Positions 5,985 through 34,800 of a DNA stretch of 43,103 nucleotides are shown here, piece by piece. Below the pieces are notes generated by a model. That model saw only the letters and a list, made by a program, of their open reading frames with translations. It was not told the DNA's origin and ran no database searches. The stretch comes from a virus (taxonomy: Duplodnaviria > Caudoviricetes). The stretch covers positions 1-43,103 of IMG/VR virus record IMGVR_UViG_3300032257_000031; one strand, 5' to 3'. Position 1 is the stretch's first letter. Each line of letters begins with the position of its first letter. Position numbers and translations under genes: made by a program.

Positions 5985-6252
5985 GTTTATTAATTAGTTC
6001 ACTTATTCTGTCGGCTACAGCCCTTATCTCGGTTGAGCAGTTATAGAAATTTCTCTCGCTATTGTCTGCGGTCGCCTCCAATTCATCAACCAGCTTCTCT
6101 AAATCCTTTACTGGTATGGATGGCTCACCATGATCAATATGCCCTACAGTACCTACGTTTACGGCGATATAATAATTGCAGGTTTTGGCTAATTCGCCAA
6201 GTTCAGTAAACCTACAATCTGGTTTATTCTTACAGGTATCACATAAACTCAT
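5974..6252 (-). CDS. Small protein with Cys cluster and an EF-Tu G1-like motif (VNVGTVGHIDHG)
   Basis: ORF track; motif read directly at 6162-6127. Confidence 0.7.
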   Translation of the reverse strand: MSLCDTCKNKPDCRFTELGELAKTCNYYIAVNVGTVGHIDHGEPSIPVKDLEKLVDELEATADNSERNFYNCSTEIRAVADRISELINKPTS

Positions 6253-6782
6253 CACTCTCCCCCTGTGTTGGTAGTCGGGATAAATAATCCATGATTCTCG
6301 TGAAAATCATATTTTATATTGGCGGCTTTCCTTGCCTCAATTGCATCATCCTTATTGATAAACAGGCCAAGATTAATAAACTGGTTATTGACTTTGATCT
6401 GCGCTCTCCATTTCCTCGACCTTTTAATGAAAGTAACGCCAGTAAACCCGCTGGTATTATTTATGCGTAAAGTTCTGTTTTTGCAATTAACCAAATGAGG
6501 CGCTTCTCTCAGATTGCATATCCTGTTATCAGCCCTGCTGTGATTAATGTGGTCTAGGCTGGTTTTTGGCCACTCCCCGTAAACATAAAGCCAAGCAAGC
6601 CTATGCGCCCGATGATATTCACGATCCAAATTAATAAACCTATACCCTAAGTCATTTATTCCGCCAGCAATTGAGCCATCCGACTTGCCTCTGCGGAGCT
6701 TTTTCCACTTAAACAACCCAGTATCAGGATCGTAACTAAGTAATTCTTTTAATCGAGCTTGTGTTAATATCTTGTCAGGCAT
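6252..6782 (-). CDS. HNH endonuclease with C-terminal AP2 domain
   Basis: YDPDTGLF, AHRLAWLY, LDHINHSRADNRICNLR, NNTSGFTGV...KWRAQI. Confidence 0.92.
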   Translation of the reverse strand: MPDKILTQARLKELLSYDPDTGLFKWKKLRRGKSDGSIAGGINDLGYRFINLDREYHRAHRLAWLYVYGEWPKTSLDHINHSRADNRICNLREAPHLVNCKNRTLRINNTSGFTGVTFIKRSRKWRAQIKVNNQFINLGLFINKDDAIEARKAANIKYDFHENHGLFIPTTNTGGE

Positions 6783-15039: not shown

Positions 15040-15239
15040 TGAACTCAATACACCATCACGGAAAGGAGTTTGTCCACCAGGACAGCTTCACCGATCAAAA
15101 AGGCGCTGATTACACCGCATCACTACTTAAATCTCACGGCTACCGCTACAGAATAAAGAAAAGAAGCCTAAACCCGCATTGTATAGCGGGACTTGGAAGG
15201 GGTATATTTTACGCGGTTTATAGAGGGGCATCGAAATGA
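15039..15239 (+). CDS. Hypothetical protein
   Basis: TAATG coupling to the upstream gene. Confidence 0.5.
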   Translation: MNSIHHHGKEFVHQDSFTDQKGADYTASLLKSHGYRYRIKKRSLNPHCIAGLGRGIFYAVYRGASK

Positions 15240-15592
15240 AACCAAACTACCACCAATACCACATAACCGAAACAGGCAAGATATACCTAAACGGCAAACT
15301 ACATCCAACTAGGAAGAACAAAGACGGCGATGTAATAGCCTATCTAAAAATAGGCAGCATAGGCGATTCAATAAGAACAAACAGAACCGTACGAGTAGCT
15401 CAGGCTGTTTGTGATGTTTACATGACCCGCGAAAAAGGACAGCAAGCGATCATATTTAAAGATGGGGATAAAACGAATATTCATCCAGATAACATGATCC
15501 CGATGAGTACCAGCGAAGCCGGACGGTATCACGCAGCACCAAAACCAAAGCCGAAAGAGGTTGATATAGATATTATGAGAATGAAATGGTAA
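15236..15592 (+). CDS. Degenerate HNH-like protein
   Basis: YHITETGKIY...VRVAQAVCDVY...IIFKDGDKTNIHPDNM; the usual catalytic His appears replaced by F. Confidence 0.6.
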   Translation: MKPNYHQYHITETGKIYLNGKLHPTRKNKDGDVIAYLKIGSIGDSIRTNRTVRVAQAVCDVYMTREKGQQAIIFKDGDKTNIHPDNMIPMSTSEAGRYHAAPKPKPKEVDIDIMRMKW

Positions 15593-18246: not shown

Positions 18247-18546
18247 ATGGCTAAGCAAACAAAAATAACTAAGTCGGCTCGCAATCAGCCATGCCTTATC
18301 CGCATCCCAGGTGTTTGTAATGGCGTAGATGAAACTACCGTACTATGCCACCTTAACGGGGGTGGTATGGGAATGAAAAGGGCGTCTTATGAGGCGGCCT
18401 ACGCTTGCAATAAATGCCATGATGCTATAGACTTTAGGTCTAAGACAAAATATTCGGCAGAGGAGTTGAAGCTATGGCATCTGGAAGGGGTGATGAGAAC
18501 GATAAAGATTCTAGTGGAGAAGGGGTTGATAGTAATAAACGAATAG
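18247..18546 (+). CDS. DUF1364 (YbcO-like) nuclease-family protein
   Basis: SARNQPCLIRIPGVCN...TTVLCHL...GMGMK...AYACNKCHDAID. Confidence 0.85.
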   Translation: MAKQTKITKSARNQPCLIRIPGVCNGVDETTVLCHLNGGGMGMKRASYEAAYACNKCHDAIDFRSKTKYSAEELKLWHLEGVMRTIKILVEKGLIVINE

Positions 18547-19085
18547 AAAAAGAGTGCAGGTTTTGTAAAAAACTATTTAGCCTTCCAAGATGCAGGGACT
18601 ATAGAGACCACTATTGCAGCAGGGCTTGCGGAAATAAACATAGAGAAGCCATAAAGCAGAGCAGGAAAGCCAAGTGCCCGAATTGCGAGAAAGAATTTAT
18701 AGCAAGAAATGCGCAATTAAGAGATGGGAATAAGCCGTATTGTTCCATTAGCTGCATAACAAAAGGGAAAAAACAAAAAGAAGATCATAAGCGTAAGCGA
18801 CTAGAATCATATATGAGAGGCAATCACCTACATCCAAGCGGGGCAGATGTTCATAACTGGAAAGGCGGAATTGCTCTTACTACGCAAGGGTATTATAAAT
18901 ACTCTGCTGGTGAAAATGCCGGAAGAAATGTACATACGGTTTTAATAGAGCAAAAGATTGGCAGAAGAATTACCAACCAAGAAGTTGTACATCACATTAA
19001 CCATGTAAAAACGGATAATCGAATAGAAAACCTGCGGCTAATGACTAGAGCAGAACACATGAGACATCATTTGCATGAGTCTTGA
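18474..19085 (+). CDS. HNH homing endonuclease with N-terminal Cys4 repeats
   Basis: CRFC..YCSRAC, CPNC..YCSISC, NWKGG, EVVHHINHVKTDNRIENLRLMTRAEH; GAGGAG RBS at 18460. Confidence 0.88.
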   Translation: MASGRGDENDKDSSGEGVDSNKRIEKECRFCKKLFSLPRCRDYRDHYCSRACGNKHREAIKQSRKAKCPNCEKEFIARNAQLRDGNKPYCSISCITKGKKQKEDHKRKRLESYMRGNHLHPSGADVHNWKGGIALTTQGYYKYSAGENAGRNVHTVLIEQKIGRRITNQEVVHHINHVKTDNRIENLRLMTRAEHMRHHLHES

Positions 19086-20024: not shown

Positions 20025-20231
20025 ATGAGAATGTCACCAAAGCGGCGCGAAACCATAAAAATGCAGATAGAACATGCCCTTAACATCGGCATGAATGTGT
20101 GCTTTGTTAGCAATAACGGATCGGCAAGAGAAAGGCGCGTTAATGGCATGACCCTGCATAAGTGGGAGTCATTTAAAATCAAAGGGATCAAACCCGACCT
20201 AATTATTTGTGATGACATAGGTGTTAATTAA
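20025..20231 (+). CDS. Small protein carrying a terminase-like Walker-B segment
   Basis: KIKGIKPDLIICDDI vs TerL KIRG...RPGLIICDDM; AAGGT RBS; TAATG coupling to the Q-like gene. Confidence 0.65.
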   Translation: MRMSPKRRETIKMQIEHALNIGMNVCFVSNNGSARERRVNGMTLHKWESFKIKGIKPDLIICDDIGVN

Positions 20232-20812
20232 TGAACTCTGATATTATCTCGCACCTTAACCCTAAAACACAGACCATAGCGGCTACTATAGGCGGCTACG
20301 GAGGACTTAAACCAGAAGATATATGTCATGCCCTATCTGGCCTAAATAAAGGCTCATACACGCTAGGACTCGCCATGCACGGATATGAGGACGCCAGAAA
20401 AGATTTAACAAATTGTTTGATCGAATCAATCCAAGACAAAATAAAACCGCTCGGCACGAATTACACTAGAATATTAGCCTTAATCGCAGTACATGAAGAA
20501 ATTGGCGATAGCCCATGTCAAGTATGCAAGGGGCGCGGATTCGTTTATAAGCAAATAGAACACCCCGATCAAATAGCAATGACTGAAAACGGACTACTTC
20601 CAACGCCATGCACCGCACCGCAATGCGTAGAAGGCGGATATAGAATGACAGACCGGGAGCGCGGCGAACTCATAGCCGAAGCGATAGATCAAAATTACAC
20701 CCAATCAGCATGGCGTAACGGCTGGTCATGGGATTTATCCGAAGCACTTTCTACGCTGTCAGAATGGCAGCATAAACTTAATATTCATTTAGGCGTGAGA
20801 CTGGAAAGATGA
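20231..20812 (+). CDS. Q-like late antitermination protein
   Basis: CQVCKGRG...C...C Zn finger; position at the end of the nin-like region. Confidence 0.55.
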   Translation: MNSDIISHLNPKTQTIAATIGGYGGLKPEDICHALSGLNKGSYTLGLAMHGYEDARKDLTNCLIESIQDKIKPLGTNYTRILALIAVHEEIGDSPCQVCKGRGFVYKQIEHPDQIAMTENGLLPTPCTAPQCVEGGYRMTDRERGELIAEAIDQNYTQSAWRNGWSWDLSEALSTLSEWQHKLNIHLGVRLER

Positions 20813-20997: not shown

Positions 20998-21143
20998 AAA
21001 TTAGACGTCTTGATGTTGGCGACGAATTCAAAATAGCCTATTTTCTTGGTATGCGCGCACTCAGAAGGATCGGACATTCAAACAACAAAATATTGAAAGA
21101 TATATTTAAAAAACACCCATTTTATAGAGGCACAGGGCAATGA
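20994..21143 (+). CDS. Hypothetical 49-aa protein (not in ORF track)
   Basis: ATGA overlaps at both ends; GGAG RBS. Confidence 0.5.
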   Translation: MKIRRLDVGDEFKIAYFLGMRALRRIGHSNNKILKDIFKKHPFYRGTGQ

Positions 21144-21460
21144 AAAGACGTTCATTTTTGAAATTATTAGGCGGTGCAGCAGTAGCGGCAACAGCGCCAG
21201 GCGTAGCTATAGAGGCGGCGGTTAAGCCAGAGATTAAGAAAAGTGCAGGGGTAGCGGATAAAAGCAGCCTTGGCCTAGCCGAAATCAAGCAAGAAGGAGT
21301 GGTTGTTAAAAGTGAATTTGGAAATGCACTATGGCCTGGCGCAGAAAAATACTATAAAGCATCTTATGATACCTATAGCCATGAATTGGCTAAAGCATTG
21401 GCTGAATCAATGCGAGAAACACAGAAAAAGGTCGTGTCCAATGTAAAATATGGCTTTTAA
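21140..21460 (+). CDS. Tat-signal protein composed of permuted major-capsid segments
   Basis: MKRRSFLK plus hydrophobic stretch; ALWPG, GLAEIKQEG and ALAESMRET match the MCP. Confidence 0.8.
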   Translation: MKRRSFLKLLGGAAVAATAPGVAIEAAVKPEIKKSAGVADKSSLGLAEIKQEGVVVKSEFGNALWPGAEKYYKASYDTYSHELAKALAESMRETQKKVVSNVKYGF

Positions 21461-21763: not shown

Positions 21764-23944
21764 TTATTTATCGATAACGACTAGAACAGTATTGATTCCC
21801 GTTCCTGATTCTTTGAAAGATCCCTCTGGAAGCTCTATTTTTTCGCCCCCAAGATTATCGAACCAAGCGCGGAAAGCTTCGCACTTCTTATCGGAGCGGA
21901 AAAAAGGGCTAGGTGACATGATAGCCACAAGCCGACCGGTATCGCTTAGCTGTTTATACGCCCGCATGACATGATCAACATCTTGCAGGTTTTCAAAAGG
22001 CGGATTCATTAAAACACGATCATAAGTTGTTATTTCTTCCCATTTAACGGTTAAAAAATCACGCTTTTCTATCAAATAGTCTTTAGCGTCGGCTATTTCC
22101 GCTAGTGTGTGATTGATTTCAAAGCCTTTTACCTCAGAGCAAAGAGGCGCAACCGCATCGGCAATAGAGCATGATCCTAGATTCGGCTCTAGTATTCTGT
22201 GATGTGGTTGAATATCGGCATAATCTATCATTAAATCGATAACGGCTTTAGGTGTTGGGAAATAGCCTGGTATTTTAGAGAATTGCAGCCCGTCAATGGT
22301 GCGTTTTAGCTCCTCGGCTTGCTTTTGTTCTTCGGTCTTGCCAGTAATCAAAGACCAAAGCGCAACGGCTTCGGGTGTCGTGTGGTGTGGCTCGCCAGTA
22401 CATACAGAGTATGAATGATAACCATTAGGGATATTTGTTTTAACTGTTCCCATAAGATCAAATACGGCTTTTTTGCTGGTTATATTGGCAAGCACAGCGG
22501 GAACTGTTCCAGCATCGTGCATATCAGCCAAGCCTAAAAGGGCTTGCTGTGTTCTTTGCAGCTTTTCCCCCTCTAGGCGTGAATGGTTAGCCTGCGCTAG
22601 TCGTTTTGCTGTATTGGTCGGACGATCTGCAAGCTTGTTGTCGATAACCGGCTGCATTTTGTCAGCCATTGCGCGGAACTTCTCGCCCATGCCCTTGCGG
22701 GGCTTTGGTGGCTCATCGTTTGGGGATTCACCAGACAGAGAAGCAAGAAAAGACTCGGCGCGCTCTTTATCTTCAAAGGCAAAGCCGCCAGGCGTTGATC
22801 CCCATTTGCGAGAGTACCAACCACCAGCGGCCTTGGCATCGTTTCGCACTTCGTTGAAGGTGTCACGATCTAGCCTTGTATCAGGAACAACCATATACAT
22901 GACAAAACCTTTTTTAGTATGTGTGTGCTCCTCAATGTGGGCTTGAATTAAGCTAGAAGATCGAGCAACGGCAGGAGCCGCCACAACTGGCGCGGCTTCA
23001 AACTCAGCCACATAGGATCCTGTTTCTAGGCTCACGCCTTTATAATTGCCGGAAATATCGACACCAGACAGGGCTTGATAAACAGCATCAGACAGCCATT
23101 GACCGCCAATACGCGCATTATTTTCGTATTCGACGCCATAAGACAGGCAAATGTCTTGCCCTACTAGGGTTTTAACTGATTCGCTAATGGTGCGTGACTC
23201 GATTACATACTTAGATTGACCAAGTACAGTAGAAACAGCGGTAGAATATGCGCTATTATCGTTTTCGTAGATGTCATCCATGCCGTTAAAAGATCCATAT
23301 TGATACTTATCAGTGATCTTTTTAATTTCTGAGGCTGGCGCGCCATCCGTCCAGGATACGCTGATAGAGTTACCCATAGAGAAACTATCGGAAGTGACAG
23401 AAAACTTAATATGGGGATAAGCTTGCTTAAGCTCCTTTTTCATATTCTTAGCCGCCCGCGCATGGCTTGACATTCCAGCGTCCAAGCCAATAGCCCACGG
23501 ATACAAGGCGCGAAGCTCATCGGCTTTAGCAGATACCTGGCGAGACTTGTCGGCTTGTTCGGCTTCTCGCTCGCGGTTTTGTTCGGCTATCTCAGCTTGT
23601 CGATCTGTTCTTTGCTCAGGTGTTTCGCGGTTGTCATCTATCGGCATTGCTTCGCGGGCAACTGGCAAAGCGCCTTTAACGGCTTCAATAACTTGATCGG
23701 CGTTATCCTTAGTGATCATCCAGTCGAACTGATCGCCAATTTCACAAAAAAGATCCTCGGCTTTTTGGTTTTCAGTACCCGAAAACATAGTACTAATAAT
23801 ATACTCAGATTCATCTACGCCAGTGACACCAGACTTTTGCAGCCGCTCAAAGCGTAACCGGTCAAGTTCTTTTATAGCGTGCATAGCATTTTTGTGCCAT
23901 TGGTGGCGGTTAGTTGTTCCTGCTGGTAGTTGAAATTTATTCAT
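21764..23944 (-). CDS. Polyvalent protein: LPD29-like domain plus N6-adenine DNA methyltransferase (DarB-like antirestriction candidate)
   Basis: AAKNMKKELKQAYP.IKFSV.S....GNSI.VSWTDG (LPD29-like); YFPTP, ILEPNLGS, VLMNPPF, GRLVAIM, LPEGSFKESGT. Confidence 0.85.
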   Translation of the reverse strand: MNKFQLPAGTTNRHQWHKNAMHAIKELDRLRFERLQKSGVTGVDESEYIISTMFSGTENQKAEDLFCEIGDQFDWMITKDNADQVIEAVKGALPVAREAMPIDDNRETPEQRTDRQAEIAEQNREREAEQADKSRQVSAKADELRALYPWAIGLDAGMSSHARAAKNMKKELKQAYPHIKFSVTSDSFSMGNSISVSWTDGAPASEIKKITDKYQYGSFNGMDDIYENDNSAYSTAVSTVLGQSKYVIESRTISESVKTLVGQDICLSYGVEYENNARIGGQWLSDAVYQALSGVDISGNYKGVSLETGSYVAEFEAAPVVAAPAVARSSSLIQAHIEEHTHTKKGFVMYMVVPDTRLDRDTFNEVRNDAKAAGGWYSRKWGSTPGGFAFEDKERAESFLASLSGESPNDEPPKPRKGMGEKFRAMADKMQPVIDNKLADRPTNTAKRLAQANHSRLEGEKLQRTQQALLGLADMHDAGTVPAVLANITSKKAVFDLMGTVKTNIPNGYHSYSVCTGEPHHTTPEAVALWSLITGKTEEQKQAEELKRTIDGLQFSKIPGYFPTPKAVIDLMIDYADIQPHHRILEPNLGSCSIADAVAPLCSEVKGFEINHTLAEIADAKDYLIEKRDFLTVKWEEITTYDRVLMNPPFENLQDVDHVMRAYKQLSDTGRLVAIMSPSPFFRSDKKCEAFRAWFDNLGGEKIELPEGSFKESGTGINTVLVVIDK

Positions 23945-24671: not shown

Positions 24672-24830
24672 ATGCCGAATCCAAGCTACAGCAACAAAAC
24701 CGGAACCAGCGCAATAGGTAATGCTAAGAAACTATTAACAGGCGCAACGGCACGAATAGACAAAGCCCTTAAAGAAGCCAATCCACACGAGAAAGGCACT
24801 AAACGTTTCTATAAACATGGTGGTAAGTAA
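24672..24830 (+). CDS. Small basic protein upstream of TerS
   Basis: AAGGAG RBS; ATG 24672. Confidence 0.5.
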   Translation: MPNPSYSNKTGTSAIGNAKKLLTGATARIDKALKEANPHEKGTKRFYKHGGK

Positions 24831-24831
24831 T

Positions 24832-25317
24832 ATGACACAAGGTAGTAAGTACTCAGATGAGATTAAAGATCAAGCCGTTATTGAGTATTGCATTACAGGC
24901 AATGTAGAGAAGGTATGTAAAAGCATAGGGGTGCCTAAACGTACTGTTTATGAATGGATAACTAAGCAATGGTTTATTGATAAGCTTGCAAACCTCCGCA
25001 CCGAAAAAGATCAGGAGTTAGACGCCCTTTACACGGAGACAATACAGTTAGCCAAAGAAAAAGCCCTAGAACGCTTACGGGACGGGGATTACGCCAAACA
25101 CGACGCCGACGGCAATGTACTATATAAGCCCGTATCCGCTAAGGATTGCACGATGGTGGCCGCTATTGACTGGGATAAACGCACGTTACAACGTGGTGGC
25201 GTAACCAGTCGGACAGAAAAAGTGAGCACTGACAAGATGTTAGACGGGTTAACGGAACGGTTCACGCAAGTGTCTAACCTGGCCAAGTCACAAGACGATG
25301 AGCAGGTTAAACATTAG
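24832..25317 (+). CDS. terS: Terminase small subunit (HTH type)
   Basis: KYSDEIKDQA...GNVEKVCKSIGVPKRTVYEW HTH, then helical region; upstream of TerL. Confidence 0.65.
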   Translation: MTQGSKYSDEIKDQAVIEYCITGNVEKVCKSIGVPKRTVYEWITKQWFIDKLANLRTEKDQELDALYTETIQLAKEKALERLRDGDYAKHDADGNVLYKPVSAKDCTMVAAIDWDKRTLQRGGVTSRTEKVSTDKMLDGLTERFTQVSNLAKSQDDEQVKH

Positions 25318-25320
25318 TAC

Positions 25321-25536
25321 ATGCTTAATAACCCTGAATACGCCCTTACAAGCCCTGTCAGCCACGATCTATCATTAGTGATGGCATTGCATAACCTTGC
25401 TATTGATTGCACGCTCACGGCCTCATACGGCGCATATGGTATCCAATACACCATAGATACAAGGGAACATCTGCCAAGCTATCAGGCTATGCACGCTACA
25501 AGCCGCACCATACATAGGCAGTACCATGATGGATAA
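25321..25536 (+). CDS. Hypothetical protein (weak capsid-like motif YGIQYTIDTRE)
   Basis: ORF track. Confidence 0.35.
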   Translation: MLNNPEYALTSPVSHDLSLVMALHNLAIDCTLTASYGAYGIQYTIDTREHLPSYQAMHATSRTIHRQYHDG

Positions 25537-25610
25537 GACTGGCGCGCTACGTGTTACGGCTGGCGAAGGGGTGAACGGGCTACATCATGCGGTAAACTGT
25601 TGATTTCTAA

Positions 25611-25646
25611 GGGTGGGGGCGGGAACATCTGGAGGGGGCGGGAGGG
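25611..25646 (+). other. G-tract cluster; candidate packaging-initiation region
   Basis: GGGTGGGGGCGGGAACATCTGGAGGGGGCGGGAGGG downstream of terS. Confidence 0.35.
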
Positions 25647-25693
25647 AGCGTATTACCCCTTCCCATACTTTAACCAAAACAAAAGAGGCCTTT

Positions 25694-25954
25694 ATGATTC
25701 GTGATATTGATATTTATCCTCCAGACAAAGACGTTATTGAGAAGCTAGAAGACTTGCTAGAAGGCGCTAAGACAGGAGAGATTCAGTCTGTAGCCTTTGT
25801 TACCTCTAAAGGAAACCTGCTAACAGGCAATGGATGGGCGGGCATGTGTAAGAACAACATGGCTATCATAGGGGAGCTAAGATGCTTAGACCAAGAGCTA
25901 TTAGATTTCTTTGTAGAGCGACGAAAAGAGCCTGTTTTTTACGATGAGGACTAA
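25694..25954 (+). CDS. Hypothetical phage protein
   Basis: GAGG RBS; VIEKLEDLLE.AKTGEIQSVAFV. Confidence 0.65.
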   Translation: MIRDIDIYPPDKDVIEKLEDLLEGAKTGEIQSVAFVTSKGNLLTGNGWAGMCKNNMAIIGELRCLDQELLDFFVERRKEPVFYDED

Positions 25955-26095
25955 ACCCCCATATTTTTTTAGCATTTTTCTCAATTTTGCGTTTTGAGAA
26001 TCTCTTTAGATTCCCATAGCTTAGTTACCCCCTTCTCAGTACAGATATACCGAGGGGTAAAAATAAAAATTTCCCTTCGGGAATAGTGCTGGTAT

Positions 26096-26123
26096 TAGAC
26101 CATTGCGAGATATGTGCTATCAT
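26096..26123 (+). promoter_or_regulatory. Putative extended -10 promoter upstream of the 26150-27134 genes
   Basis: TAGACC-16 bp-TATCAT with TG at the extended position. Confidence 0.3.
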
Positions 26124-26149
26124 CAATTAACTTCAATGAGGTTTGAGAT

Positions 26150-26461
26150 ATGATTGATTCCAGTAAGCTGCTTAGTAGCATGCAAGAAACTAATTCCATC
26201 CTTAAAGATGCTTTGCGCCCCACAAACACGCAAGAATGTTTATATTACGGGTACAAGCTATCCAATATTGATTGTGACGATATTGAGACGACTTTTCGGG
26301 ATATATGTATTGGTGCAGAAAGAGACGACGAAAGGGCTATTAAAGAGCGGGTTAAAATATTCCTTCCTGATTCAGGAGATGAAATAGACTTAGAAGATGT
26401 GTTGCGATTTTCCGCTAAGCATTGTCGAGGCATTTACGACAGAGTTGGGAGCGAGATATGA
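26150..26461 (+). CDS. Hypothetical protein
   Basis: GAGGT RBS; ATGA overlap with the next gene. Confidence 0.6.
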   Translation: MIDSSKLLSSMQETNSILKDALRPTNTQECLYYGYKLSNIDCDDIETTFRDICIGAERDDERAIKERVKIFLPDSGDEIDLEDVLRFSAKHCRGIYDRVGSEI

Positions 26462-26922
26462 AAAGACGTAATTTCCTAAAAGCACTTGGTTGCGCCCCAT
26501 TACTATATGCTGCTCCAGCTATTGCGATACCCGAAAAAAAATCGATCGTTCCGAAAACGGTGAGCGAGTTGAACGAAATGATTTTGGCTTACCTGCCTAA
26601 CGATCCAGTAATTAATTATGGCGACGCGATAGCTATATCAAGTATTGGCATAATCCCGCCATCTGCATATAAAGATATGTCGAAATCTAAGCATCACAGT
26701 TATCGCCATGAGTATGTTGTCGCTCAGTACCGCAAAAACATAGATTACGAAGAAGATGACGAAGTAGAAAGCCTCGTCATGCTTGCTTGGCTAGATTTTC
26801 AGAAAAAGGCGAAGGGGGCTAAAAAGATGTATGTGCGGAGAAACATGGAACTAAGCCATGTAACCGATCGGGGTAATATGACGGATTGGCGTATTGCTGG
26901 CCGGTATTCATTTTACCGATGA
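26458..26922 (+). CDS. Tat-signal protein with capsid P-domain-like segments
   Basis: MKRRNFLK...AIA signal; YRH......Y.......EDD..E and KMYVRRNMEL...D...RYSF match the MCP. Confidence 0.75.
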   Translation: MKRRNFLKALGCAPLLYAAPAIAIPEKKSIVPKTVSELNEMILAYLPNDPVINYGDAIAISSIGIIPPSAYKDMSKSKHHSYRHEYVVAQYRKNIDYEEDDEVESLVMLAWLDFQKKAKGAKKMYVRRNMELSHVTDRGNMTDWRIAGRYSFYR

Positions 26923-27134
26923 AAGACCTTAACGAATTCAACCTGCGCCGAGCCGTTCAGCTTTTAGACGAGAGGTCTGGAGGCAAGGACGGCGTTGTGT
27001 TGCATATTAACGTTTCCTTATTTTCCGAAGCGCAAGAGTTTATTGCGAAAGGACTTGTTTCTCGATTGGTCACAATGGGAAATGATGGCTGGTCTTTATC
27101 CCGTAACGGGGTTGGCGTGAATGGTAACACCTGA
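26919..27134 (+). CDS. Small protein resembling the capsid A-domain
   Basis: DLNE...G.KD, L......F..A and DGWSL registers match MCP residues 165-250; ATGA overlap. Confidence 0.55.
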   Translation: MKDLNEFNLRRAVQLLDERSGGKDGVVLHINVSLFSEAQEFIAKGLVSRLVTMGNDGWSLSRNGVGVNGNT

Positions 27135-28554
27135 TGCGGTATTTGGTTTCGTTAATACGATTCTCGCCTCTGGGTTAGACGGATACAAGAAAACCCCTGA
27201 CTGCCATCGTGAGTGGTGGGAATTATGCTGCTCCGACGATGAAAAGGTTGCGATAGCCGCCCCCCGAAATCACGCAAAGACTTCCGCGATAACCATTGCC
27301 TATTTGTTAATGGAGCTGCTTTACCGACAGCAGAAATACGCAATCATTATTTCGGATACCGAAGATCAAGCGATTGAGTTTTTAGACGGCGTTAAATTCC
27401 ACCTAAAAGACAACGAAGAACTGATACAAGCCTTTGGGGTTTCTAAGCTCACTAAAGACGGGCAAACAGATACCATTGTTCAAATGTCAGATGGGCATGA
27501 GTTCAGAATCCTTGCGAAAGGCGCAGAGCAGAAGATTCGTGGCCGTAACTGGCGCGGCGGGCGGCCTGGTTTAATCATCTGTGATGACATGGAAAATGAC
27601 GAGTCGGTAATGAATTCTGAGCGGCGCGCTAAGTTCCGTAGATGGTTCTTCTCAGCAGTTAGACAATCACTACGCGATGGTGGTAAGATACGCGTCGTAG
27701 GGACAATTTTGCATGATGATAGCCTACTGTCCCGATTAATGAAGAACAAAACGTGGACTTCACGCCTTTATTCCGCCCACAAATCCTTTAATGACTTTTC
27801 CGATATTCTATGGCTTGAAAAATGGCCTAAAGAAAGGCTAATGGAGAAAAGGCAGGAATATATTGAAGAAAATGACCCAGAAGGCTATTCACAAGAATAT
27901 TTAAACGATCCGGTTGTATCGCAAAACGCCTATTTCCGCAAAGACGACTTTGTTGAAATGGCAAAAGAAGAACATAACTTGCGAATGACCTATTACTCGG
28001 CGGCTGATTTCGCCATATCCCAAGCTAAAAGAGCGGACAACACCGCCATTATCACGGTAGGCATCTGTCCAGAAGGGTTGATGTACGTCGTTGATCTAAG
28101 AATGGGTCAGTGGGATTCGCTTGAGATCGAAGCCGAGCTATTTGCCGTACAAAGAAAGTACAACCCTGAAATCTTTACCTTTGAGACTGAGAAGATTGAT
28201 AAGGCGATCGGGCCTTATTTAAGGCAGTCTATGATAAGAGAGAACGTTTATCTCAATATCGATAAAATCGTACCATCGAAAGATTTAACGGTGCGTTGCC
28301 GAGGCATTCAGGCGCGACATAAAGCCGGAACAATCAAATACGACATGGACAAAGACTGGTTTGCTATTCTGCAAGAACAGATGATGCGCTTTCCAAAATC
28401 AACAAAAGACGACGCTGTAGCCGCTTTTGCGCTTATCGGCATGACTCTCGATAAACAAATCGAGCCTTCCAACGACGAGGAGTATGAAGACGAAATGTAC
28501 GAAGAAGAATTCGGGCAATCATACTTCGGTCAAGATGCGGTGACAGGATATTGA
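27121..28554 (+). CDS. terL: Terminase large subunit
   Basis: APRNHAKT Walker A, LIICDD Walker B, VVGT, YSQEYLNDP, AADFA and KDDAV nuclease motifs. Confidence 0.95.
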   Translation: MVTPDAVFGFVNTILASGLDGYKKTPDCHREWWELCCSDDEKVAIAAPRNHAKTSAITIAYLLMELLYRQQKYAIIISDTEDQAIEFLDGVKFHLKDNEELIQAFGVSKLTKDGQTDTIVQMSDGHEFRILAKGAEQKIRGRNWRGGRPGLIICDDMENDESVMNSERRAKFRRWFFSAVRQSLRDGGKIRVVGTILHDDSLLSRLMKNKTWTSRLYSAHKSFNDFSDILWLEKWPKERLMEKRQEYIEENDPEGYSQEYLNDPVVSQNAYFRKDDFVEMAKEEHNLRMTYYSAADFAISQAKRADNTAIITVGICPEGLMYVVDLRMGQWDSLEIEAELFAVQRKYNPEIFTFETEKIDKAIGPYLRQSMIRENVYLNIDKIVPSKDLTVRCRGIQARHKAGTIKYDMDKDWFAILQEQMMRFPKSTKDDAVAAFALIGMTLDKQIEPSNDEEYEDEMYEEEFGQSYFGQDAVTGY

Positions 28555-30605: not shown

Positions 30606-30753
30606 TTGGGAGCTGGGCACACTTGATGCCAGTGATGAGTGGGTAAGGGGTCATTTGGGCGCTTTATCCGATATTCTTGAAGTGACGGTTGAAGGCCTTG
30701 AATATGAAAGTGAGATCGAAAAAGAGATAAAGGAAGCCGCTCATGGAGAATGA
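30511..30753 (+). CDS. Hypothetical head-module protein
   Basis: F..WK.DP.TQ motif typical of the post-portal gene. Confidence 0.6.
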   Translation: MEKETFGLWKNDPTTQAVWRAIQLKHKHLQRDWELGTLDASDEWVRGHLGALSDILEVTVEGLEYESEIEKEIKEAAHGE

Positions 30754-31054
30754 ATCCGGTTATGATCCGTTAGATTTACGCGTCTTGATTCGCCTTGACG
30801 AAGTAGATGATACATTTGAAAACTCCAAGATTATTAAGCTCGAAAAGACCGTTAATGAAGGGAATATGCAGCAAGTCACAGGCACTATCATTGCTTGCGG
30901 TGAAAATGCGTTTTGCGAGTTAAATAATAAGCCGAAAGCTGGCGACAGAGTGGTTATCGGTAAATATGTTGGTTGGCTAACAACCGGCGACGACGAGAAA
31001 GAATACAGAATCATCAATGATGAAGACGTAATTGCATTTAGGAGAGAGAAATGA
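30743..31054 (+). CDS. groES: GroES-like co-chaperonin
   Basis: PLDLRVLI...GTIIACG...K.GDRV..GKY.G...EYRIINDEDVIA. Confidence 0.85.
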   Translation: MENESGYDPLDLRVLIRLDEVDDTFENSKIIKLEKTVNEGNMQQVTGTIIACGENAFCELNNKPKAGDRVVIGKYVGWLTTGDDEKEYRIINDEDVIAFRREK

Positions 31055-33000: not shown

Positions 33001-33030
33001 ATGGCAGTTATAACATCGGGAAATCACCCT
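33001..33030 (+). CDS. Major capsid protein, exon 1 (MAVITSGNHP)
   Basis: AAGGAG RBS; joins in frame to KALWPGV at 33919. Confidence 0.88.
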
Positions 33031-33918
33031 TCTTGCTGAGGGGCCTTAACAAGTAATTGTTGAGTAAACAGGCATTTAACTGCTGGGAACTCTCGTAGGC
33101 CTATGGTAGGATAATACATGGCGACATGTATCGACCCCTTATAATCCATAGGATAGAGACAATCAGCATCCAATCTTAAAATGTATTACGTATATAGACT
33201 TCTTAATAAAGCCAATCAGAAATCATACATTGGTATAACCTCCAGAACCGTAAAAGAACGGTGGCTTGAACATGTTTCAAGAATCAAGTCCGGTAGGAAC
33301 AGTAGGATATATGCAGCTTTAAGAAAGTATGGACAGGATGGCTTTGAAGTCATCACTCTTGAGGAAACTAGCTCAGAAGATGAAGTGAGAAAACTAGAGG
33401 AAGATTACATTAAACTCTATGACTCATATAGTAATGGCTACAACTGCAATTATGGCGGGTGTGGCACATTATGTTTTTCTGACGAAATCCGGAAAAAGAT
33501 TAGCAAAGCCCAGATCGGCAAAGTCATATCTTTAGAAACAAGAAAGAAAATGTCCGAAGCGAAACTTGGAGACACCAGATGCGCTAAGCATTTCGGAGAA
33601 CATACCTCTAAGGGCGGCAAAAATCCCAGATCAAAATATTTTTTAATCGGATTGCCAGATGGCACCGAAAAAGCCATACAAGGGATTAGAGAATTTTGCA
33701 GAGATAATAATTTGCAATATGCCAAACTTAGCTCGAAAGGTAAGACCAAGGGATTTAGCATTTTAAGAAGGTTCATCGACTATCCAGAAATGGAGTACAC
33801 TCAAGTGAGTGGAAATGGTGCCTACCCCTCAGGGGTAAAGATATAGTCAGCTCTGCATGGAGACATGCAGCAGTCGAAAGACGGGCAAGGGGTTAACGAA
33901 CCTTGTTGAACATAAAGG
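33031..33918 (+). mobile_element. Group I intron (IA2-like), 888 nt
   Basis: P1 CCCU|UC paired to GAGGGG with U-G at the splice site; P AACUGCUGGGAA 33078; Q AAUCAGCA 33161; P7 GACUAU 33778 / AUAGUC 33843; P3 GGCAUU/GGUGCC; P7.1, P7.2, P8 and P9 hairpins; terminal G 33918. Confidence 0.93.
33181..33846 (+). CDS. Intron-encoded GIY-YIG homing endonuclease with NUMOD3-like repeats
   Basis: YVYRL.N..N.KSYIGIT...RW.EH, E..YI..YDS..NGYN, SDEIRKKISKA / SLETRKKMSEA. Confidence 0.92.
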   Translation: MYYVYRLLNKANQKSYIGITSRTVKERWLEHVSRIKSGRNSRIYAALRKYGQDGFEVITLEETSSEDEVRKLEEDYIKLYDSYSNGYNCNYGGCGTLCFSDEIRKKISKAQIGKVISLETRKKMSEAKLGDTRCAKHFGEHTSKGGKNPRSKYFLIGLPDGTEKAIQGIREFCRDNNLQYAKLSSKGKTKGFSILRRFIDYPEMEYTQVSGNGAYPSGVKI

Positions 33919-34800
33919 AAAGCACTCTGGCCGGGCGTAAAAGCATGGTGGGGTCATGAATACGATGAGTGGAATGAAGAATATAAAGACTTATTCGACA
34001 TGGACACTTCAACCCAAAACTACGAAGAAGATGTACAGCTAACCGGCTTCCAAGCTGCTCCTATTAAGGGCGAAGGCGCTGGCGTTGCATACGATTCTGA
34101 AACACAAGGCTTTGTAACTCGTTACAAGCATGTTGTTTACGGTTTGGGCTACATTGTTACGCGCGAAGAAATGGAAGACGGCTTGTACGAAAAAGTCTCT
34201 AAAGGCCGTGTTACTGCATTAGCAGCCGCTATGCGTAATACAAAAGAAACTGTTGGCGCAAATATCTACAACCGCGCATTTAACACTTCTTACACCTTTG
34301 GCGACGGCAAGCGAATGATCTCTAACGATCATCCAAATGCTATCGGCGGCACGTTCTCTAACGTGGCAGATACGGCGTCCGATTTATCGGAAGCGTCTAT
34401 CGAGGACTTGAATATTCAGATCATGGGGGCTAAAGGCCCGAAAGATTTGCAAATCAACCTTATGCCACGCTGCTTAATCGTTCCGCGCCAAGAATTCTAT
34501 AATGCTAACCGCATTTTGAAATCTGTGCTGCAAAACGATACCGGCAATAACGCTATCAACGTACTGAAATCAACTAATGCACTCCCAGATGGCATTAAGG
34601 TGAACCATTACCTTACTGACTCTGACGCATTCTTTATTCGTACCAGCGTTAAGAACGGCTTAAAGTGCTACCAACGACGCGCTATTGAGTTTACTAAAGA
34701 CAACGATTTCAGCACTGAAAACGCCCTTGCGAAAGCAACTGAGCGGTATTCTTTCGGTGTAACAGATGTTCGTGCTGTCTACGGAAACCCAGGCGTATAA
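33919..34800 (+). CDS. Major capsid protein, exon 2 (HK97 fold; spliced product 303 aa)
   Basis: KALWPG, A.IK.EG, YKH..Y.LGY.VTRE..ED.LY, ALA..M..TKE, GDG, DLSE, YLTD.DA.F, ERYSFG. Confidence 0.92.
   Translation, partial: KALWPGVKAWWGHEYDEWNEEYKDLFDMDTSTQNYEEDVQLTGFQAAPIKGEGAGVAYDSETQGFVTRYKHVVYGLGYIVTREEMEDGLYEKVSKGRVTALAAAMRNTKETVGANIYNRAFNTSYTFGDGKRMISNDHPNAIGGTFSNVADTASDLSEASIEDLNIQIMGAKGPKDLQINLMPRCLIVPRQEFYNANRILKSVLQNDTGNNAINVLKSTNALPDGIKVNHYLTDSDAFFIRTSVKNGLKCYQRRAIEFTKDNDFSTENALAKATERYSFGVTDVRAVYGNPGV

Follow-up and report, generated by a model that had tools for sequence, protein, structure and literature searches.

The phage record studied here, complete at 43.1 kb and bearing terminal repeats, carries, between the genes for its two terminase subunits, a short open reading frame (orf) whose product, P0001, begins with a twin-arginine-type leader. 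A first-pass annotation of the whole 43,103-nucleotide stretch (the window) saw in this protein an isolated P-domain of an HK97-fold capsid, with the A-domain cut out. We ask here whether P0001 is descended from a major capsid protein (MCP), which parts of an MCP it keeps, and what use a phage might have for such a product. A capsid copy sent to the export route for folded proteins would fit no described mechanism of anti-defence, exclusion or assembly.

The phage record and its capsid gene

The record's sequence is present in microbial-mat sequencing runs. Its early genes are of lambdoid type (Sak, NinB and a Q-like antiterminator), the head module is also in the window, and comparison of 52 window orfs with PHROGs found no integrase. 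A GroES-like co-chaperonin (30743–31054) is encoded between the portal and scaffold genes, and a gene for a 726-residue polyvalent protein (LPD29 plus methyltransferase; 21764–23944, minus strand) sits between the two leader genes and runs counter to the late operon. Coordinates of the features discussed are given in Table 1.

Table 1. Features of the window considered in the analysis of the mini-capsid gene.
Feature	Coordinates	Strand	Remarks
Q-like antiterminator	20231..20812	+	phrog_127, E 0.003; lies upstream of the two leader genes, in a late-operon setting
Second twin-arginine-leader gene (orf 21140), 106 aa	21140..21460	+	matches pieces of MCP N-arm (profile 2–32) and spine helix (100–126)
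Terminase small (24817–25317) and large (27121–28554) subunit genes	24817..28554	+	mini-capsid gene lies between them
Mini-capsid gene (P0001), 154 aa	26458..26922	+	orf; homologue P0105, E 6.5e-8 over residues 1–151
P0001 residues 1–23	26458..26526	+	twin-arginine-type leader: K-R-R-N-F-L-K, moderately hydrophobic stretch, A-I-A as possible cleavage site
P0001 residues 27–47	26536..26598	+	conserved with P0105; predicted helix; N-arm and A-domain registers both non-significant
P0001 residues 53–77	26614..26688	+	likely E-loop hairpin with shortened tip (MCP profile 44–74); weak
P0001 residues 74–109	26677..26784	+	aligned with MCP 76–99 (strand from E-loop into P-domain sheet, short helix), possibly first spine-helix turns
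P0001 residues 110–154	26785..26919	+	aligned with MCP 247–291, which holds AW, a long C-terminal strand, the P-loop and a final strand bearing RYSF; a beta-hairpin is predicted
Major capsid gene, HK97 fold	33001..34800	+	exon 1 33001–33030, exon 2 33919–34800
Likely group I intron with GIY-YIG orf	33031–33918	+	interrupts major capsid gene

The major capsid gene is interrupted. MCP relatives begin with the ten residues encoded at 33001–33030 and run unbroken into the sequence at 33919, and 56 related MCPs are uninterrupted at this site, after codon 10. The insert contains an orf for a GIY-YIG endonuclease (33181–33846), the final base of exon 1 is U with a GAGGGG partner close behind, and the final base of the insert is G; no Rfam intron model matched. 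From these features we infer that the insert is likely a group I intron. All MCP positions below refer to the full-length protein (exon-2 position plus 10). The predicted structure of the exon-2 product has a pLDDT of 87.8 and matches HK97-fold capsids with an E-value of 4e-13; the protein belongs to the Mu gpT-like / phrog_371 group, with relatives in Pelagibacter phage HTVC023P, Roseobacter phage CRP-901 and Alcaligenes phage vB_Af_QDWS535.

The mini-capsid gene and its leader

The P0001 orf is real. Its start had been placed at the ATG at 26458, which holds, giving 154 codons that open with MKRRNFLK and end at the stop 26920–26922; GGAG lies just upstream, and an ATGA overlap joins the orf to each neighbour (the upstream orf being 26150–26461 and the downstream ATG lying at 26919). 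Codon use is 0.73, as compared with 0.71–0.83 in other genes, and a contig from run X2—a sample and study different from those of run X1, the probable source—spans 26191–27316 with zero differences. The first-pass annotation was also right that the 5′ codons are shared with orf 21140: the window has exactly two copies of the 12-mer ATGAAAAGACGT, one at each of these starts, so that the first four codons are the same, and the two orfs agree at 20 of their first 30 bases. Promoter and terminator scans gave chance-level results only. Because the gene sits between the terminase genes, in the late operon, we infer that P0001 is made late, alongside the real capsid protein.

The leader follows the twin-arginine (Tat) consensus Z-R-R-x-hydrophobic-hydrophobic (taken from PMC13673990), which in P0105, the homologue described below, reads N-R-R-N-F-L-K. 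A simple scan gives a best 12-residue hydropathy of 1.76 for the h-region and finds sites of A-x-A type at residues 21–23 of P0001 and 20–22 of P0105 (G-W-A). The P0001 leader scores below the curated cut-offs of both Tat models (TIGR01409, 12.3 of 16.7 bits; PF10518, 12.1 of 22.7 bits), and P0105 has no NCBIfam match; the orf 21140 leader exceeds the TIGR01409 cut-off at 17.7 bits. The P0001 leader resembles a Tat signal peptide, sharing the Z-R-R-x-F-L-K motif, the moderate h-region and the A-x-A site, but differing in that it is phage-encoded, has a short n-region and a sub-cut-off score, and carries a capsid fragment as cargo; export is predicted.

One full-length homologue

A phmmer search of 1.84 billion representatives returned three matches: P0001 itself; P0106, a repeat protein that we set aside as a chance match; and P0105, a protein of 172 residues that is 36% identical to P0001 over nearly its whole length. 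The relationship does not depend on the leader, as the mature parts alone match at 44.2 bits (E-value 1.9e-6). Searches for further full-length homologues were negative. A 5.8-billion word search recovered only P0001 among 62 candidates, and only the pair among 452 when both were used as queries; none was found in IMG/VR (three leader-only loci), in 8 of 64 parts of a set of metagenome contigs (two leader-only loci), in GTDB genomes, or in 50 virus records, of which 46 carry related MCP or terminase genes (two matches to the leader end only). GenBank phages gave matches at E-values of 1 or worse, and the ESM Atlas no usable match.

Descent from the capsid protein

The first-pass annotation aligned two segments of P0001 with the MCP of the same phage. 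These segments exist, and their MCP numbering is right if the 10 codons of exon 1 are counted, but the likeness (6 of 24 identities in the first segment, 6 of 15 plus RYSF in the second) does not rise above chance when P0001 is taken by itself. BLAST gives P0001 an E-value of 2.1 and hhalign one of 0.24. With an in-house profile aligner that allows long jumps, used for the shuffle and decoy tests, 60–158 of 400 shuffles score as high against a profile of 56 MCPs, 7–43 of 200 against a profile of 144, and 84 of 300 against the phage's own MCP; 50 of 493 decoys, real orfs of similar length, do as well. Three registers compete for the middle of P0001, and an A-domain register competes for its start. 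P0001 alone is thus not significantly MCP-like. Its own MCP, to which it is about 22% identical (26 of 117 aligned positions), ranks 82nd of 145 MCPs (20.5 bits versus a median of 21.5). At the DNA level the P0001 gene shows no likeness to the MCP gene apart from 13 identical bases, at 26746–26758, with the E-loop region (YEED codons; E-value 0.015); their register is different from the supported one and we take them as chance.

The evidence for descent comes from P0105. Against the profile of 144 MCPs it matches at 73–99 and 245–291 (domain matches at 73–99 and 253–290), the two regions named in the first-pass annotation; none of 500 shuffles reaches its score in any of six settings, and its 43.7 exceeds the maximum of 35.6 among 493 decoy orfs. 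Against the window phage's own MCP, none of 300 shuffles scores as high. Taken jointly, in a pairwise alignment built without any MCP, P0001 and P0105 score 30.9, compared with 12.4 ± 2.1 for 500 shuffles, none of which does as well. Comparison of the pair with 23 MCPs by hhalign gives a probability of 1.4% and an E-value of 0.036 (0.043 in another run), weak values that fit two short matching segments lying far apart. At 34 columns P0001 and P0105 are identical, and at 16 of these the residue is the MCP consensus, a count that is partly circular in that the alignment was made with those MCPs. Both proteins keep the MCP-invariant residues A-W, R-R, D and R-Y-S with about two thirds of positions changed, which suggests that a capsid surface is being maintained. 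As to the motifs that the first-pass annotation expected homologues to conserve, YxRR and RYS are retained in the sole homologue found, which has RYSV where P0001 has RYSF.

Since P0105 matches the MCP profile at both regions, we conclude that P0001 derives from an HK97-fold MCP. That it is a genuine orf with a leader motif and one full-length homologue, descended from MCP 76–99 and 247–291 with loss of the A-domain, we regard as highly probable, and with intact frames in both P0001 and P0105 the leader-plus-capsid design has been kept over a long time.

Segments retained and lost

In a MAFFT alignment of P0001, P0105 and 14 MCPs (10 of these chosen as good P0105 matches), both proteins are colinear with the MCPs apart from one large gap. 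Residues 74–95 of P0001 fall on MCP 76–99 and residues 96–154 on MCP 240–291, and MCP 100–239 is without a partner, so that no A-domain is present; in an alternative joint alignment MCP 100–111 is kept and the match resumes at 247, leaving the junction uncertain by about 12 residues. A deletion from P0001 of about 135–140 central MCP residues, comprising the A-domain together with a large part of the spine helix, is thereby supported.

The individual segments differ in strength. For the match of the pair to MCP 76–99, which is driven by P0105, none of 1000 shuffles scores as high. The gapless register originally proposed for this segment (MCP 78–101) picks out the right region but is probably five residues off: shifting the first strand by five residues raises the score over 15 columns from 0.3–3 to 10–11 bits, and the shifted register also agrees better with P0105 (BLOSUM62 sum of 13 versus 7). 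The E-loop match of residues 53–77 is equalled by 3–4 of 300 shuffles for P0001 and by 50–63 of 300 for P0105, and part of the E-loop seems, on this weak match, to be kept. The block at residues 27–47 matches no MCP segment, as 758–810 of 1000 shuffles score as high.

A different register would make P0001 the C-terminal third of an MCP, with residues 22–67 representing the A-domain (profile 189–233), which would then be only partly lost. The best pairwise matches of P0001 (L119, L103 and L097) use this register, it recurs in patchwork alignments, and L163:8001 seems to be built in this way from another capsid family; but it is non-significant (best E-value 0.07 among 144), the joint P0001 and P0105 block scores 2.3 bits or less there, and it never appears in the best alignments of P0105. 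We regard it as very improbable.

On the MCP model the parts kept under the two-segment mapping are strands 73–90, helix 92–96 and strands 248–291, and those lost are most of the 100–128 helix plus the elements lying between 168 and 238. In the HK97 topology, distant strands that flank the A-domain pair in the P-domain sheet. The A-domain forms the capsomer core, and both the E-loop and the P-domain make inter-subunit contacts (10.1101/2022.09.09.507160, PMC8569155). It follows from this topology and these articles that the lost part would be the A-domain and that the kept strands would pair in the P-domain sheet. Descent from an MCP with loss of the A-domain, as first proposed, is thus upheld, but the description as an isolated P-domain is too neat: the spine helix (MCP 100–128), of which at most 100–111 is kept, belongs to the P-domain and is mostly missing, and P0001 is better described as a partial P-domain with E-loop. 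Assembly of a shell by P0001 is unlikely because the A-domain, the capsomer core, is absent.

Structure prediction for the mature protein gave a low-confidence model (AlphaFold pLDDT 41.5), even though the P0105 and 14 MCP rows supplied should favour a capsid fold. Its elements (helices 35–45 and 101–117 and a hairpin 125–135 / 143–153) agree with the mapping only in part. Foldseek found no match to it at an E-value of 0.001 or better and VIA-align none at a Z of 5 or more, the model being too poor for either result to count in either direction; the Atlas model of P0001 is also poor (pTM 0.26). P0001 may fold only with a partner.

Other leader genes with capsid pieces

Orf 21140 is a clearer capsid match than P0001: none of 400 shuffles reaches its score against the MCP profile, and its E-value is 0.0012 among 32,239 orfs. 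By sequence it is clearly built from pieces of the N-arm and the spine helix, together with a weak, out-of-order E-loop piece, and the MCP pieces that it and P0001 hold are largely complementary. A contig of run X1 shares 36 bases at 21138–21173 and then diverges, and probably represents a further gene in that sample that carries this leader.

Outside the window, L101:984–1217 joins a leader to a spine-helix fragment of this MCP family (E-value 0.014 among 32,239 orfs), and L163:8001–8456 weakly matches its own N4-type capsid protein (E-value 0.010; TIGR04387, E-value 0.14). The latter is the second of two adjacent twin-arginine-leader orfs (L163:7723–8456) that lie between terminase and portal genes, and it seems to combine part of the A-domain with the C-terminal strands of that capsid protein. 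Nine of the 11 leader orfs outside the window have no capsid match to this MCP profile, with which, rather than with their own MCPs, most were compared. TIGR01409 matches one of 49 related records, this being the model that also misses the P0001 leader.

The leader may be a mobile cassette that captured MCP pieces, with P0001 now acting in the envelope independently of any capsid mimicry, or having hardly any function, and the leader serving perhaps only translation or membrane anchoring. The unmatched tails of so many leader orfs, the best-conserved N-terminal block without an MCP counterpart, the poor fold prediction and the rarity of the family are all in keeping with such an exaptation or relic. 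It is harder to reconcile with the intact frames and invariant residues that P0001 and P0105 keep despite their divergence, and with a design common to two separate genes of one phage, and we consider it doubtful.

Relationship to known systems and possible function

Compared with HK97-fold MCPs, P0001 shares, in the order of the MCP, the 76–99 strand and the last 45 residues, and probably a portion of the E-loop, but is half their length, has neither A-domain nor G-loop, is missing most of the spine helix and bears an export-type leader. Ccm of SaPIbov5 (PMC8569155) is likewise a diverged capsid homologue repurposed as an accessory factor, 24% identical to the capsid protein of its helper. 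It differs in having the whole fold and A-domain pentamers, in being satellite-encoded, and in that the available part of that article describes no leader for it; P0001 is half-length, and its gene lies in a complete phage record that has an MCP of its own. The open-access literature, as far as its text was accessible, yielded no description of phage genes joining a twin-arginine leader to capsid pieces, and the architecture of leader plus cut-down capsid appears to be new in kind, neither MCP nor Ccm-type. P0001 would show that selection can maintain an HK97 fold truncated at the boundary of the A-domain, and its family, two members that have cleanly lost one internal stretch, is a compact object for structure and export assays.

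One possible use is against a co-infecting relative, whose MCP or scaffold an A-domain-less subunit could bind through its E-loop and P-domain, stopping shell growth while the leader removes the complex. Ccm is a capsid homologue that redirects the assembly of another phage (PMC8569155), the retained regions are those of inter-subunit contact, and the middling rank of the phage's own MCP is expected if self is avoided. The late-operon position would, however, have such a poison made beside the phage's own MCP, the lack of an integrase leaves exclusion at the lysogen stage unsupported, and similarity to any MCP is low; we think this use unlikely. Alternatively, an uncleaved, membrane-anchored fragment, possibly with orf 21140, could serve at the inner membrane to tether or nucleate procapsids or the packaging motor. 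The position between terminase genes, the ATGA coupling to both neighbours and the complementary MCP pieces of the two leader genes would suit such a helper, but the lack of a full-length homologue in the 50 virus records argues against a core part and the A-x-A sites suggest cleavage, so that we hold it to be quite unlikely.

Our preferred reading, at a probability of about 0.38, is that P0001 is a leader fused to a diverged, centrally deleted capsid copy that serves as a capsid decoy, taken to the inner membrane or through it. Lacking the A-domain it could fill neither hexamer nor pentamer, yet would retain E-loop and P-domain surfaces through which it might bind, without activating it, an MCP-recognising protein, most probably an immune sensor of the host. 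The Tat machinery would then remove or tether the P0001–sensor complex by piggyback export, and orf 21140 would be a putative second decoy presenting other MCP surfaces. Bacterial sensors of MCPs (Avs7, Avs8, Avs10 and Dsr1) are common and detect the HK97 fold through its shape even at low sequence identity (PMC13581612), a property that a diverged mimic could turn to use. Tat copes with small substrates that are unfolded but expose no hydrophobic stretches (PMC13673990) and exports signal-less partners in complexes by hitchhiking (PMC4273604). The long-kept design of P0001 and P0105, the second leader-plus-MCP gene in the same phage and the related designs L101:984–1217 and, weakly, L163:8001–8456 also favour a decoy.

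Several points tell against it. P0001 alone is not significantly MCP-like and its fold models are poor, the leader falls below the Tat cut-offs with P0105 unmatched in NCBIfam, and only two family members are known. A mimic of the phage's own capsid would hardly be expected to have diverged so far, with that phage's MCP ranked so low. The contacts of Avs7 are mostly with the A-domain, the part that P0001 has lost, and PMC13581612 describes no capsid decoy, using the word only of proteomics databases. The known sensors are cytoplasmic, so that export of the free protein would carry the decoy away from them. The broader form of the proposal, that P0001 and orf 21140 make up a Tat-addressed set of capsid mimics that bind host sensors or rival capsid subunits and expel them through the folded-protein exporter, a counter-defence by hitchhiker export, we consider improbable. 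P0001 offers a direct test of phage escape from sensors of the conserved capsid fold, which cannot easily be mutated away.

Patchwork and interrupted genes

A search for short MCP relatives gave 103 matches, and of seven inspected six are plain MCP fragments and one (P0104) is a patchwork without visible leader, its N-arm joined to the last strand. L044:7178–7597 is a further MCP patchwork without visible leader, made of weak N-arm and E-loop pieces (E-value 0.88). P0017 and P0079, and P0078, are MCP pieces on long contigs (43,770 and 52,638 bases) and are possibly capsid genes split by frameshift or intron. A terminase match at L174:234–2201 takes up 1,968 bases for 477 residues, which suggests an intein or intron. 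In the window itself, four HNH-type orfs accompany the GIY-YIG orf, in the regions 6252–6782, 15236–15592 and 18247–19085.
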